A DNA stretch of 64,000 nt, from NCBI GenBank assembly GCA_964016885.1, contig OZ024759.1:9176001-9240000 (forward strand). Reading direction: 5' to 3'. The stretch's first letter is position 1. Every line of letters starts with the position of its first letter. Under the pieces are notes generated by a model. That model saw only the letters and a list, made by a program, of their open reading frames with translations, ran no database searches and had not been told where the DNA came from. This DNA is from Eledone cirrhosa (Eukaryota). This document shows positions 2,473-8,400 of this stretch, piece by piece. The translations under genes were made by a program, and so were the position numbers.

Positions 2473-5400
2473 CTGTGGTAAAACACACAAAAAACACAAG
2501 ATATAAAAATAGAAATACAACAGTTTTAAAGTAAATTTTCCTGCTAAAGCAAAATAGAAGATTGGAGAGATAGATAGAGAGATAGATAGATGGAGAAATT
2601 GATAGACAGACAGACAAATAGGTAGATAGATAGATAGATAGATAGAGAGATCATTTCATCATCATCATCATTTTACGTCCGCTTTTCCCTGCTTGCAAGG
2701 GTGGGACGGGAACTGATTCTGGCTTGATTTCTACAGCTGGATGCCCTTCCTAACACCAACCTCATTTACAGTGAGTGCTGGGTGCTTTTTTGCCGTGGCA
2801 CCTCCACGACCACTTTGCAGTGGAATGATAGGGACCCCAGTCCCTATCATCTCATTTCTACAGCTGAGTAAACTGGAGCAATGTGAAATAAAGTGCCTTG
2901 CTCAAGGAAACAACACATCACCCGGTCTGAGAATTGAACTCACAACCTTTCAATTGCAAGTCCAATGCTCTAACCACTAAGCCATGTGCCTCCATTAGAT
3001 AGATGTAGAAATTGATAGACAATCAGATAGATATATTTCTTTATTTGCCACAGGGGTGCACAAGAAAAGGGGACAATACAAAGACACATGCCGGGGATTT
3101 TACATACAGTCGTGTAAAAATATTGAAACAAACATCATTCCATTTTACGTCCGTTTTTCCCTGCTTGCAATTATAACAATTATAACAATCAAAATCTCCA
3201 ATAGGACACACACACACACACACACACACACAAATAGGTTGTTTAATACCCCGTCGATAGAACAACCCTCAACTTCAGGAGCATGTTGTGCAAGTGCTCC
3301 CTTCTTCCTTTTGCTCTCTTCTTCAACCTACAGGCTTATAAACAGAGAAGGCCCAATCACTCGGGCCATTTTCGCTTCATACACCCACCTTTCAGTAAAT
3401 TTACTGGGGTAGACAGACAAATAGGTAGACAGATAGATAGATTTCTATTTATTGCCACTAGGGTGCAAAAGAAGGGGACAAATACAAGGGGGCAGTTTAC
3501 ACAAAAAGGCGAGTAAAGAAAACAAATAACAAATATAATAGATAGAGAGATAGGTAGATGGATAGATTGATAGATAAGCAGACAAATAGAGAGAGAGAGA
3601 GAGTGAAGAATGTGCAATGTTTACCTTGACAAAGCGCCACAAATTCAGCCAAATTGCGAAGAGCACTGAGTACAATATCAGGATTGTCATCTCCAAGACA
3701 TTGGACCAATACTGGAACATAATGGCAACCATTCCTGGAGGGGAGGGCAACATAAAGAAAGGGATGAGAATATAAAAATGTGGTGAGACAGGAAGTTAGT
3801 GGTGGTGGTGGTGACGGTGTTGGTGTTGATGCTGGTGGTGGTGTTGGCAGTGGTAGTGGTGTAGTGTGGTAGTTATGGTAGTAGTGGTGTAGTGTGGAAG
3901 TGGTGTAGTGTGGTAGTGGTGTAGTGTGGTAGTTATGGTAGGTGTAGTGTGGTGTGGTAGTGTGGTAGTGTGGTAGTGGTGTAGTGGTGGTGTAGTGTGG
4001 TGTGGTAGTGGTGTAGTGTGGTGTAGTGTAGTGTGGTAGTGGTGTAGTGTGGTAGTGGTGTAGTGTGGTAGTGGTATGGTGTGGTAGTGGTGTAGTGTGG
4101 TGGTAGTGGTAGTGGTGTAGTGTAGTGTGGTAGTGGTGTAGTGTAGTAGTGGTGTAGTGTAGTGTAGTGTGGTAGTGTAGTAGTAGTGTAGTGTGGTAGT
4201 GGTGTAGTATAGTAGTGGTGTAGTGTAGTGTGGTAGTGTAGTAGTGGTGGTAGTGTGGTAGTGGTGGTAGTGTAGTAGTGGTGGTAGTGTAGTAGTGGTG
4301 TAGTGTAGTAGTGGTGTAGTGTAGTAGTGGTGTAGTGTAGTAGTGGTGGTAGTGTAGTAGTGGTGGTAGTGTAGTAGTGTAGTAGTGGTGGTAGTGTAGT
4401 GTAGTAGTGGTGCTAGTCAGACAAGGTGTCAGAGAGAAAGTAGACCTTACCCAGGGTTCTGCCTAATACTCCTCATCACCATTGTGTAGGCGTAACTACG
4501 ACAGTGTAGTGGTGTAGTGTAGTGGTGTAGTGTGGTTGTAGTGTAGTGTAGTGTGGTAGTGTAGTAGTAGTGGTAGTCAGACAAGGCGTCAGAGAGAAAG
4601 TAGACCTTACCCAGGGTTCTGCCTAATACTCCTCATCACCATTGTGTAGGCGTAACTACGACAGTGTAGTGGTGTAGTGTAGTGGTGTAGTGTGGTTGTA
4701 GTGTAGTGTAGTGTGGTAGTGTAGTAGTAGTGGTAGTCAGACAAGGTGTCAGAGAGAAAGTAGACCTTACCCAGGGTTCTGCCTAATACTCCTCATCACC
4801 ATTGTGTAGGCGTAACTACGACAGTGTAGTGGTGTAGTGTAGTGGTGTAGTGTGGTTGTAGTGTAGTGTAGTGTGGTAGTGTAGTAGTGGTGGTAGTCAG
4901 ACAAGGTGTCAGAGAGAAAGTAGACCTTACCCAGGGTTCTGCCTAATACTCCTCATCACCATTGTGTAGGCGTAACTACGACAGTGTAGTGGTGTAGTGT
5001 AGTGGTGTAGTGTGGTTGTAGTGTAGTGTAGTGTGGTAGTGTAGTAGTGGTGGTAGTCAGACAAGGTGTCAGAGAGAAAGTAGACCTTACCCAGGGTTCT
5101 GCCTAATACTCCTCATCACCATTGTGTAGGCGTAACTACGACAGTGTAGTGGTGTAGTGTAGTAGTGGTGTAGTGTAGTGTAGTGTGGTAGTGTAGTAGT
5201 AGTGGTAGTCAGACAAGGTGTCAGAGAGAAAGTAGACCTTACCCAGGGTTCTGCCTAATACTCCTCATCACCATTGTGTAGGCGTAACTACGACAGTGTA
5301 GTGGTGTAGTGTAGTGGTGTAGTGTGGTTGTAGTGTAGTGTAGTGTGGTAGTGTAGTAGTAGTGGTAGTCAGACAAGGTGTCAGAGAGAAAGTAGACCTT

Positions 5401-8400
5401 ACCCAGGGTTCTGCCTAATACTCCTCATCACCATTGTGTAGGCGTAACTACGACAGTGTAGTGGTGTAGTGTAGTGGTGTAGTGTGGTTGTAGTGTAGTG
5501 TAGTGTGGTAGTGTAGTAGTAGTGGTAGTCAGACAAGGTGTCAGAGAGAAAGTAGACCTTACCCAGGGTTCTGCCTAATACTCCTCATCACCATTGTGTA
5601 GGCGTAACTACGACAGTGTAGTGGTGTAGTGTAGTGGTGTAGTGTGGTTGTAGTGTAGTGTAGTGTGGTAGTGTAGTAGTAGTGGTAGTCAGACAAGGTG
5701 TCAGAGAGAAAGTAGACCTTACCCAGGGTTCTGCCTAATACTCCTCATCACCATTGTGTAGGCGTAACTACGACAGTGTAGTGGTGTAGTGTAGTGGTGT
5801 AGTGTGGTTGTAGTGTAGTGTAGTGTGGTAGTGTAGTAGTGGTGCTAGTCAGACAAGGTGTCAGAGAGAAAGTAGACCTTACCCAGGGTTCTGCCTAATA
5901 CTCCTCATCACCATTGTGTAGGCGTAACTTCGACAGTCATCGTTCAGATCCGACATTAACCTCTTTAAATCAGCCTGGAAAAGAAAACAACTGGATTTTA
6001 ACCCCTTTCATACAAAACCCACTGGAACCAGCCGTTGTTACAGTAGGGGCCAGTGTCGTTACTACATGGCACCAACAGTGTTACAGTAGGGGTCATTAGA
6101 TAATACATAGTACCAACTGTGTTACAGTAGGGGTCATTAGATAATACATGGTACCAACAGTGTTACAGTAGGGGTCATTAGATAATACATGGTACCAACA
6201 GTGTTACAGTAGGGGTCATTAGATAATACATGGTACCAACAGTGTTACAGTAGGGGTCATTAGATAATACATAGTACCAACTGTGTGACAGTAGGGGCCA
6301 GTGTCATTACTACATGGCACCAACAGTGTTACAGTAGGAGTCATTAGATAATACATGGTACCAACAGTGTTACAGTAGGAGTCATTAGATAATACATGGT
6401 ACCAACAGTGTTACAGTAGGGGTCATTAGATACTACATGGTACCAACACTGTTATAGTAGGGGTCATTAGATACTACATGGTACCAACAGTGTTACAGTA
6501 GGGGTCATTAGATACTACATGGTACCAACTGTGTTACAGTAGGGGGTCATTAGATAACACATGGTACCAACAGTGTTACAGTAGGGGTCATTAGATAACA
6601 CATGGTACCAACAGTGTTACAGTAGGGGTCATTAGATAATACATGGTACCAACAGTGTTACAGTAGGGGTCATTAGATAATACATGGTACCAACAGTGTT
6701 ACAGTAGGGGCCATTAGATAATACATGGTACCAACAGTGTTACAGTAGGGCCCAGTGTCGTTACTACATGGTACCAACAGTGTTACAGTAGGGGGTCATT
6801 AGATAATACATGGTACCAACAGTGTTACAGTAGGGGGTCATTAGATAATACATGGTACCAACAGTGTTACAGTAGGGAGTCATTAGATAATACATGGTAC
6901 CAACAGTGTTACAGTAGGGGCCATTAGATAATACATGGTACCAACTGTGTTACAGTAGGGGTCATTAGATAATACATGGTACCAACAGTGTTACAGTAGG
7001 GGTCATTAGATAATACATGGTACCAACAGTGTTACAGTAGGGACCATTAGATAATACATGGTACCAACAGTGTTACAGTAGGGGTCATTAGATAATACAT
7101 GGTACCAACAGTGTTACAGTAGGGGCTAGTGTCGTTACTACATGGTACCAACAGTGTTACAGTAGGGGTCATTAGATAATACATGGTACCAACAGTGTTA
7201 CAGTAGGGGTCATTAGATAATACATGGTACCAACAGTGTTACAGTAGGGGTCATTAGATAATACATGGTACCAACAGTGTTACAGTAGGGGTCATTAGAT
7301 AATACATGGTACCAACAGTGTTACAGTAGGGGCCATTAGATAATACATGGTACCAACAGTGTTACAGTAGGGGTCATTAGATAATACATGGTACCAACAG
7401 TGTTACAGTAGGGACCATTAGATAATACATGGTACCAACAGTGTTACAGTAGGGGTCATTAGATACTACATGGTACCAACAGTGTTACAGTAGGGATCAT
7501 TAGATAATACATGGTACCAACAGTGTTACAGTAGGGGTCATTAGATAATACATGGTACCAACAGTGTTACAGTAGGGATCATTAGATACTACATGGTACC
7601 AACAGTGTTACAGTAGGGGTCATTAGATAATACATGGTACCAACAGTGTTACAGTAGGGGTCATTAGATAATACATGGTACCAACAGTGTTACAGTAGGG
7701 GCCATTAGATAATACATGGTACCAACTGTGTTACAGTAGGGACCATTAGATAATACATGGTATCAACAGTGTTACAGTAGGGGTCATTAGATAATACATG
7801 GTACCAACAGTGTTACAGTAGGGGCCATTAGATAATACATGGTACCAACAGTGTTACAGTAGGGCCCAGTGTTGTTACTACATGGTACCAACAGTGTTAC
7901 AGTAGGGGGTCATTAGATAATACATGGTACTAACAGTGTTACAGTAGGGGGTCATTAGATAATACATGGTACCAACAGTGTTACAGTAGGGAGTCATTAG
8001 ATAATACATGGTACCAACACTGTTACAGTAGGGGCCATTAGATAATACATGGTACCAACTGTGTTACAGTAGGGGTCATTAGATAATACATGGTACCAAC
8101 AGTGTTACAGTAGGGGTCATTAGATAATACATGGTACCAACAGTGTTACAGTAGGGACCATTAGATAATACATGGTACCAACAGTGTTACAGTAGGGGTC
8201 ATTAGATACTACATGGTACCAACAGTGTTACAGTAGGGATCATTAGATAATACATGGTACCAACAGTGTTACAGTAGGGGTCATTAGATAATACATGGTA
8301 CCAACAGTGTTACAGTAGGGATCATTAGATACTACATGGTACCAACAGTGTTACAGTAGGGGTCATTAGATAATACATGGTACCAACAGTGTTACAGTAG

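Follow-up and report, generated by a model that had tools for sequence, protein, structure and literature searches.

A donor-spanning minisatellite at an INTS1 exon end, probably silent in splicing

In the window (the whole 64-kb stretch of DNA that was analysed), an INTS1 exon end, together with its donor, recurs nine times down the following intron, and in each copy a TAG lies 45 nt before the donor. The locus raises the question whether these copies serve as small exons, whether their donors compete with the native one, or whether the whole array leaves with the intron. The analysis favours, with a probability of roughly 0.78, a donor-spanning minisatellite of the F7/CBS/LMNB2 class in which the native donor alone would be used and the nine copies would be spliced out unused; the array is likely a new, and probably silent, member of an already known class.

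Host gene and anatomy of the array

The host gene was identified as INTS1 by Pfam domain matches and protein comparison, in agreement with the first-pass annotation. The encoded protein was 86.7% identical to INTS1 of Octopus sinensis (a sequence taken from a cluster of 5 members), which makes the gene a likely octopod one, and a structure-database (PDB) search with the translated exon also matched INTS1. Relative to the O. sinensis protein, the coding part within the window begins at residue 1074, and it forms a single open frame of 1070 codons; the 64-kb window showed no second INTS1 copy. The native exon at which the array starts matched positions 37–65 of Pfam INTS1_R4 (E 8.4e-08) and the next exon positions 70–102 (E 2.3e-08), and from these R4/HEAT matches the repeat-encoded stretch probably belongs to an R4 helix. 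The earlier designation 'exon 20' holds as a count of coding exons inside the window (Table 1). The intron that carries the array is 2.1 kb long.

Table 1. Positions in the window of the array, its copies and the neighbouring INTS1 exons
Feature	Position	Strand	Remarks
160-bp minisatellite	4340..5937	-	10 units; each of 55 exon bases, donor and about 105 intron bases
Native INTS1 exon bearing array start	5883..5974	-	92 nt, phase 0 to 2; third coding exon from the end, 20th within window; array unit 0 starts with its final 55 nt
First spacer	5768..5882	-	115 nt; contains native donor, two CTGAC motifs (A at +22 and +34), one further AG (+36/37) and, after these, a G-free CAC/TAC tract
Copy 1 of 45-nt candidate cassette	5723..5767	-	TAG before, donor after; acceptor score -8.6 bits
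Copy 2 of candidate cassette	5563..5607	-	
Copy 3 of candidate cassette	5403..5447	-	
Copy 4 of candidate cassette	5243..5287	-	followed by 107-nt spacer
Copy 5 of candidate cassette	5091..5135	-	
Copy 6 of candidate cassette	4931..4975	-	
Copy 7 of candidate cassette	4771..4815	-	
Copy 8 of candidate cassette	4611..4655	-	
Copy 9 of candidate cassette	4451..4495	-	original intron sequence after its donor
G-free CAC/TAC microsatellite, source of spacer tract	3860..4410	-	551 nt, 0 G; TRF 3850-4417
Next INTS1 exon	3625..3734	-	110 nt, phase 2 to 1; normal pyrimidine-rich acceptor
Last coding exon of INTS1, up to stop codon	2357..2472	-	

The tandem array that had been reported at this exon end was recovered by TRF over its full extent (4340-5937; period 160, 10.0 copies, 97% matches), and the 45-mer with its donor was found ten times, as the native one and nine copies. 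Successive units were spaced by 160 nt eight times and by 152 nt once, which leaves spacers of 115 nt and one of 107 nt, each with two CTGAC motifs, much as first described. An exon end is copied as proposed, its exact length being 55 nt (5937-5883) and not about 54; the other 37 of the 92 exon bases, and the acceptor, are not in the copies. In all nine copies the donor equals the native one over 12 intron bases, and within the 45-mer the copies are identical to each other, which gives no sign of selection in either direction. Outside it, two variant bases are common to units 0 and 9 and one to units 5 and 6; 8 nt are deleted from unit 4, and unit 8 has a private change. In the one haplotype examined, the 152-nt unit and this pattern suggest turnover of the array. 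An assembly artefact, in the array itself or in its copy number, was considered extremely unlikely: the units are 97% alike and the window is repeat-dense with perfect long palindromes, themselves possible artefacts, but the variants are structured, one base sets all nine copies apart from the exon, the window is free of any N, and long reads easily span 1.6 kb. As a repeat, the array is far beyond chance; its cassette-like features are not.

The A-to-T difference and the reading frame

TAG was present in all nine copies where the native exon has AAG, as the first-pass annotation had observed; its further statement that the substitution created an acceptor was corrected, the AG being already native and the A/T difference affecting only the base before it, a silent third position of an Arg codon. 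The distance from TAG to donor was confirmed as 45 nt, open and in frame if spliced in. Open frame and phase 2-2 follow automatically from the copying of the native frame once the length is divisible by 3, and 'no stop' and 'phase 2-2' were for that reason rejected as independent evidence for a cassette. An in-frame AG lies within the last 55 nt of 11 of the 21 INTS1 exon ends in the window and an in-frame YAG in 4 of the 21, and 77 of 210 AGs in exons keep the frame to their donor. Against a silent array it counts that only 7 of 165 possible substitutions, the A-to-T seen here included, make a new in-frame YAG. The same change also completes the pairing of a 5-bp hairpin with the tract. A stem of at least 5 bp was obtained from 2 of the 165 substitutions at loops of up to 8 nt, from 8 at 12 nt, from 20 at 20 nt and from 33 at 30 nt (from 1 of 165 when downstream context was left out), and the same stem would arise from 32 of 77 alternative breakpoints; an origin of the A-to-T change by template switching at a hairpin is thus a post hoc, loop-size-dependent possibility. 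The change, silent in the native frame, is best read as neutral.

Strength of the candidate acceptor

Candidate acceptors were scored with a matrix trained on INTS1's own 22 acceptors, the real ones being scored leave-one-out, and with a logistic model (cross-validated AUC 0.988); the splicing claims made here are predictions from these 22 acceptors and from mammalian experiments. In the matrix the copies scored -8.6 bits vs -0.1 to 14.2 for real acceptors, that is 8.5 bits under the weakest, and 570 of 936 distinct intronic YAG decoys scored at least as high; other in-frame AGs within the 45-mer were lower still (-10.8 to -16.6). In the logistic model the copies reached -9.25 and -8.01 vs a real minimum of -1.95, and were outscored by 626 and 509 of 1002 decoys, respectively. 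The candidate thus lies under all 22 real acceptors in both models. Positions -20 to -5 hold 3 T in the copies vs 6–12 in real acceptors, and the longest pyrimidine run is 2 vs 3–24. Neither yUnAy nor even TnA was found within 15–50 nt of the copies' AG; this test is soft on its own, since yUnAy at that distance is also absent from 9 of the 22 real acceptors. The proposal of an exon tandemisation in progress is not supported by these comparisons.

The two CTGAC motifs of every spacer place their A at +22 and +34 from the donor and at -94 and -82 from the AG, and the 25 nt after them contain 7 and 5 T with no long U-rich tract. The steric limit between donor and branch point is about 50 nt (PMC7969005; PMC5740500) and the usual branch distance 19–37 nt (PMC10078293). 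Being too near the donor of their own spacer, the motifs make it likely that adjacent copies cannot be joined, and the ladder of 0–9 repeats once proposed is therefore unlikely.

Use of the TAG as an acceptor, by which 45-nt cassettes would add 15-residue repeats to the R4 domain, is accordingly judged very improbable. If it occurred, splicing would most probably go through the distant CTGAC branch sites, which would keep neighbouring copies from being joined and limit inclusion to 4 (from copies 2–9). The 20-mer that a donor-to-copy junction would form does not occur in the window itself. In its favour, the insert is in frame and open, the A-to-T change raises the matrix score by 3.1 bits, and the geometry resembles that of OGDH intron 4a, where branch points lie 25–41 nt from the donor, followed by a long AG-free zone and a long pyrimidine tract on which splicing relies (PMC7969005); spacer positions 35–112, in contrast, are 18% T. 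CACC motifs, a further point in favour, which in human cells can help weak tracts to recruit U2AF via YB-1 (PMC3458536), occur twice in the last 60 nt of the four spacers counted, and CACC/CATC 0–2 times in real introns. Against such use, the TAG was predicted to be fully paired (P(unpaired) 0.0), although 5 of 21 real acceptors were also at or below 0.03. The junction, moreover, is of constant length: all 31 aligned relatives have 67 residues across it with no repeated 8-mer, and a cassette-type insert was found in 0 of these 31, all of them other species that may lack the array; 13 more distant relatives spanning the junction differ in length by at most 3 residues. We give equally little credence to the bolder version, in which the minisatellite would have created, in a single step and within a core Integrator gene, a cluster of sterically exclusive micro-exons where distant CTGAC branch sites and CACC enhancers enable the TAG. 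Neighbouring copies could then not join, and transcripts would include 0–4 extra copies of one R4 helix, the range being set by each animal's array length.

Most spacers had also been described as having no other AG past the donor. This is true of 8 of the 9, counted from the AG of the donor itself to the terminal AG; the first spacer has one at +36/37. That the extra AG is carried by the first and last units and is absent from 8 of 9 spacers counts against a silent array. The AG-free zone is nonetheless automatic, because the tract derives from a G-free microsatellite (Table 1), and was rejected as a sign of selection.

Repeated donors and read-through

Nine intact duplicate donors bear out the earlier suggestion of potential decoys. 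The native donor is of no great strength, which counts against the silent reading: it ranked 20th of 21 in the local matrix, though it was mid-range for U1 pairing. For all nine downstream donors, read-through past the native donor runs into a stop immediately, 266–1538 nt above the last junction, and any use of a downstream donor would run into this stop codon; mis-chosen donors would for this reason yield substrates for decay (probably NMD) and not longer proteins. Leaky use of the first one or two copied donors at a measurable rate, with the stop-containing transcripts likely degraded and INTS1 dosage tuned by copy number, is considered unlikely. The rank of the native donor, its identity with the nine others and the position of the stop speak for it, and in the CBS and 6-16 arrays two pseudo-donors serve alongside the authentic one; in F7, LMNB2 and PDGF, however, the authentic (first) donor alone is used (PMC1557585). 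The donor of copy 1 would already make an exon of 252 nt and later ones up to 1524 nt, and nothing points to regulation over noise.

A recursive (ratchet) splice site consists of a YAG directly before a GT donor, behind a pyrimidine tract. The intron contains 0 YAGGT, its 10 AGGT lying inside the donors themselves, and recursive donors in this strict sense, which the first-pass annotation had also envisaged, were rejected.

Origin of the array and comparison with known systems

Tandem repeats make up 66% of the intron bases of the gene, which holds 15 minisatellites; given that number, one donor-spanning array is to be expected (0.81 expected, probability of at least one about 0.57). The array may have arisen by a single local duplication, with one end at a 3-nt shared ACT in the exon and the other somewhere in the CAC/TAC microsatellite downstream, after which one base would have come to differ between exon and copy; slippage or unequal exchange would then have spread the unit, as for the gene's other 14 minisatellites. 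Only the native exon would be preceded by a real acceptor and tract, and only it would be defined as an exon, because the copies have a donor but neither a U-rich tract nor a branch motif at usable distance. The spliceosome would thus use the first (native) donor only, the nine copies leaving with the intron.

Donor-spanning intronic minisatellites are described for human F7 IVS7 (37 bp), CBS IVS13, the interferon-inducible 6-16 gene, LMNB2 (100 bp) and PDGF intron 4 (81 bp) (PMC1557585). As in these, the first INTS1 unit spans the exon–intron boundary, beginning 55 nt inside the exon, and the donor recurs unchanged along the intron, here 9 times. Unlike them, the INTS1 unit is longer (160 bp) and copies more of the exon (55 nt vs 4 in F7), thereby bringing an in-frame AG, and the array lies in an invertebrate host. 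With the distant-branch-point mutually exclusive exons OGDH 4a/4b it shares a long stretch devoid of AG and branch-like motifs at less than 50 nt from the donor, but it has no U-rich tract, the copies are partial, identical and recent, and the branch sites are candidates by motif. Internal tandem repeats alter exon–intron structure in human segmental duplications (PMC2812944), and a minisatellite at an exon–intron boundary could likewise alter the structure of INTS1; those cases concern duplicated genes backed by transcripts, whereas the INTS1 array is a genomic observation.

Clusters of the Dscam type consist of whole exons that were copied with their own acceptors and have since diverged. 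The INTS1 copies resemble them as head-to-tail exon-like elements inside one intron but have no acceptor and lack 37 of the 92 exon bases. As a tandem cassette, the copies are frame-compatible and stop-free, but have no duplicated acceptor or tract of their own and no acceptor of comparable strength. No literature was found on INTS1 in octopus, and no specific paper on cephalopod intronic satellites.

Significance

In its most likely state the array matters little: it is a further donor-spanning minisatellite, and tandem repeats fill two-thirds of the introns of its gene. It has modest value as a natural non-mammalian test of the rule that the first of identical donors wins, and it carries its own marker, the A/T base 48 nt upstream of the donor, by which reads from native and copied donors can be told apart. 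For gene annotation and the mapping of short reads, the array is a pitfall as well. A 30-bp array dominated the window-wide search for direct repeats. Should the cassettes be used, the locus would offer a rare view of an exon arising from a satellite, within a scaffold protein whose length is constrained.

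Structure of the array and gene model

The same 45-nt exon end with the same donor was found 10 times on the minus strand, with a spacing of 160 nt in eight intervals and 152 nt in one (table). Each unit copies 55 nt of the exon (5937-5883) and, in 9/9 copies, carries TAG in place of the native AAG; the spacers, i.e. the intron stretches between one donor and the next 45-mer, are 115 nt long (one 107 nt) and hold two CTGAC motifs each. The first-pass annotation had described the array accurately, and its copies, 45-mer with donor, TAG, spacers and CTGAC motifs were all re-found. 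The array is most likely a silent donor-spanning minisatellite: the spliceosome would take the first, native donor, and mis-spliced read-through RNA would decay.

Features of the INTS1 locus (window positions)
Feature	Position	Strand	Details
45-nt exon end and donor	5927, 5767, 5607, 5447, 5287, 5135, 4975, 4815, 4655, 4495	minus	
Minisatellite array	4340-5937		TRF: period 160, 10.0 copies, 97% matches
Partial copy of exon 4	54418-54157 vs 53044-52503	minus	acceptor and first 66 nt, about 260 nt
Near-perfect inverted repeat	41910-42389		arms 238 nt, 100%, 4-nt gap
Near-perfect inverted repeat	41472-41808		arms 158 nt, 97%
Near-perfect inverted repeat	29002-29583		arms 222 nt, 100%
Near-perfect inverted repeat	53086-53518		arms 134 nt, 99%

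Twenty-two coding exons were located on the minus strand, with a joint open frame of 1070 codons and a stop at its end. By homology the gene is INTS1: one exon matched human INTS1 in PDB (E 3e-13), Pfam INTS1_R4 matched the native exon (positions 37-65) and the next exon (positions 70-102), and the window translation shared 86.7% identity with Octopus sinensis INTS1, whose residues from 1074 onward it covers, and 75.7% with Argonauta hians, which makes an octopod host other than O. sinensis likely. From the INTS1_R4 match we take the 15-residue repeat to be one helix of a HEAT-like pair. The name exon 20 for the native exon holds as a count inside the window; two further coding exons follow it in the gene.

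Splice signals of the copies

The TAG of the copies had been proposed as an acceptor defining 45-nt cassette exons, open and in phase 2-2. The openness and phase are true but automatic, since a copy retains the native frame and the length from AG to donor is divisible by three. In this gene, 77/210 AGs within exons stand in frame with their own donor. Among the exon ends, 11/21 have an in-frame AG that lies within the last 55 nt and no closer than 21 nt to the donor, and 4/21 have an in-frame YAG in the last 55 nt. The substitution did not create the AG, which is already in the native exon; the base preceding it, the wobble position of an Arg codon, is all that differs. Likewise, 8/9 spacers are AG-free from the donor's own AG to the last two bases, but this is automatic because the tract from which they derive, a CAC/TAC microsatellite, has 0 G in 551 nt.

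Acceptors were scored with a matrix trained on the gene's own 22 acceptors, real sites being scored leave-one-out. Real acceptors scored -0.1 to 14.2 bits and the copies -8.6, a value equalled or exceeded by 570/936 distinct intronic YAG decoys. With the native A the score was -11.7; the change to T adds 3.1 bits, and the copy acceptor is nevertheless predicted to fall far short of real sites. A logistic model (AUC 0.988) agreed: the copies scored -9.25 and -8.01, lower than 626 and 509 of 1002 decoys, respectively, whereas no real acceptor fell below -1.95. Both models were built on few sites, and the gap between copies and real acceptors is large. In the copies, T occurs 3 times in -20..-5 and pyrimidine runs reach 2 at most; real acceptors have 6-12 T there and longest runs of 3-24. 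The TAG is predicted to be paired in the RNA, as are 5/21 real acceptors.

No yUnAy and no TnA was found 15-50 nt from the copy AG, an interval with at least one TnA in 22/22 real acceptors, 9/22 of which lack a full yUnAy; branch points are described as usually lying 19-37 nt from the acceptor (PMC10078293). The CTGAC motifs annotated as branch-like are present, but their adenosines precede the AG by 94 and 82 nt and follow the donor of their own spacer by 22 and 34 nt. Vertebrate data, as presented in PMC7969005 and PMC5740500, indicate steric interference at donor-branch site distances below about 50 nt, so adjacent copies could probably not be joined. Distant branch sites are functional in OGDH with a long pyrimidine tract, whereas the tract of the octopus array is 18% T. 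The suggested ladder of 0-9 15-aa repeats was therefore dropped: even with a working acceptor, inclusion would reach at most 4, from copies 2-9. Cassette use of the copies is thus very improbable, given acceptor scores far under real sites in both models and CTGAC too near the donor, although the length is in frame, A->T is among the few changes yielding YAG, a competing AG is gone from the inner units, and CACC motifs occur in the spacers; in human cells such motifs are reported to help YB-1 bring U2AF to weak tracts (PMC3458536).

The native donor is mid-range for U1 pairing (-9.7 kcal/mol; range -4.5 to -14.1) and ranks 20/21 in a local donor matrix, a strength that could allow some leaky splicing at the first copied donors. 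If the exon is extended to one of the nine donors downstream, in every case the frame closes just past the native donor, 266-1538 nt upstream of the last junction; such transcripts would probably be subject to NMD. The donors of exon 8 (36804) and exon 11 (33020), two exons required for the open frame, are also predicted to pair unusually weakly with U1 (-5.6 and -4.5 kcal/mol). Recursive donors, another earlier suggestion, found no counterpart, as no YAG/GT ratchet site was found in the intron.

Comparison with known minisatellites and related proteins

Minisatellites with the first unit across an exon-intron boundary are described for F7, CBS, 6-16, LMNB2 and PDGF; according to PMC1557585, the authentic donor alone is used in F7, LMNB2 and PDGF, and two further donors in CBS and 6-16. 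The octopus array shares, in its sequence, both structural features of this class. Minisatellites are also reported to alter gene structure sometimes (PMC2812944), in cases with transcript support, whereas the octopus array is a genomic observation. A literature search, largely confined to papers outside subscription, found none on INTS1 in octopus.

Thirty-one invertebrate INTS1 proteins out of 121 distinct were aligned, 29 of them named and 2 unnamed, cephalopod-like and encoded on 6.6-kb contigs; vertebrate entries, two partial ones and the remaining unnamed ones were excluded. The two-exon junction spans 67 residues in 31/31, and no repeated 8-mer was found in the last 290 residues of any. 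Among 20 representatives drawn from 142 relatives, 7 were truncated or misaligned at the junction and the 13 spanning it had at most 3 extra residues. Judged by these alignments, the fixed length shows constraint in other species, not absence of a 15-aa-repeat isoform in Eledone cirrhosa, because none of the compared proteins is from this species.

Origin of the array

At the left breakpoint, ACT is common to exon and tract. Units 0 (native) and 9 share two spacer bases missing from the inner units, units 5 and 6 have one base in common, unit 4 has an 8-nt loss and unit 8 a private change. This pattern fits one founding duplication followed by inner amplification and argues mildly against assembly error; with such an origin, the T in nine copies would therefore be one event, not nine. 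Silent changes make up 30/159 of those possible in the copied coding part, and 7/165 possible substitutions give a new in-frame YAG. A hairpin of at least 5 bp is perfected by 2/165 with a loop of at most 8 nt, and by 8, 20 and 33 of 165 at limits of 12, 20 and 30 nt, in a test set up only after the hairpin had been seen. The observed A->T is silent, YAG-making and hairpin-perfecting. Template switching has been held responsible for mutations perfecting imperfect inverted repeats, as outlined in PMC3820800.

Repeat content of the gene

Tandem repeats occupy 37,128/56,536 intron bases (66%; gene 2357-62105), including 15 minisatellite arrays of period at least 30, the longest 8.9 kb (30-bp unit, 296 copies, 11028-19915). 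With 15 arrays seeded uniformly on the collapsed gene, 0.81 donor-spanning arrays were expected (P of at least one, 0.57); 1/15 was observed. Seven of the 14 other arrays end 25-61 nt before a splice site. Exon 4 itself lies at 52568-52314, and its partial copy, 1654 nt further upstream, carries the identical acceptor; the sole open in-frame donor downstream of the copy is weak (87-nt exon, 3.7 bits vs real 4.3-13.4). Since its acceptor is a real one, this copy could compete more effectively than those of the array. With this copy and the donor-spanning array, local copying of splice signals is common in INTS1 here.

One 72-bp unit is arrayed in two different introns (34539-35747 and 51101-52184). 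Two 48-bp arrays (36940-40158 and 54470-56741) are unrelated, the second by eye resembling a dispersed SINE-like repeat. The long inverted repeats could be foldback elements, local inverted duplications or assembly artefacts, and could form double-stranded RNA. Degraded coding fragments, which we take to be LINE-like, lie within or downstream of the gene at about 1600-1930, 23800-24330 and 40400-40750.
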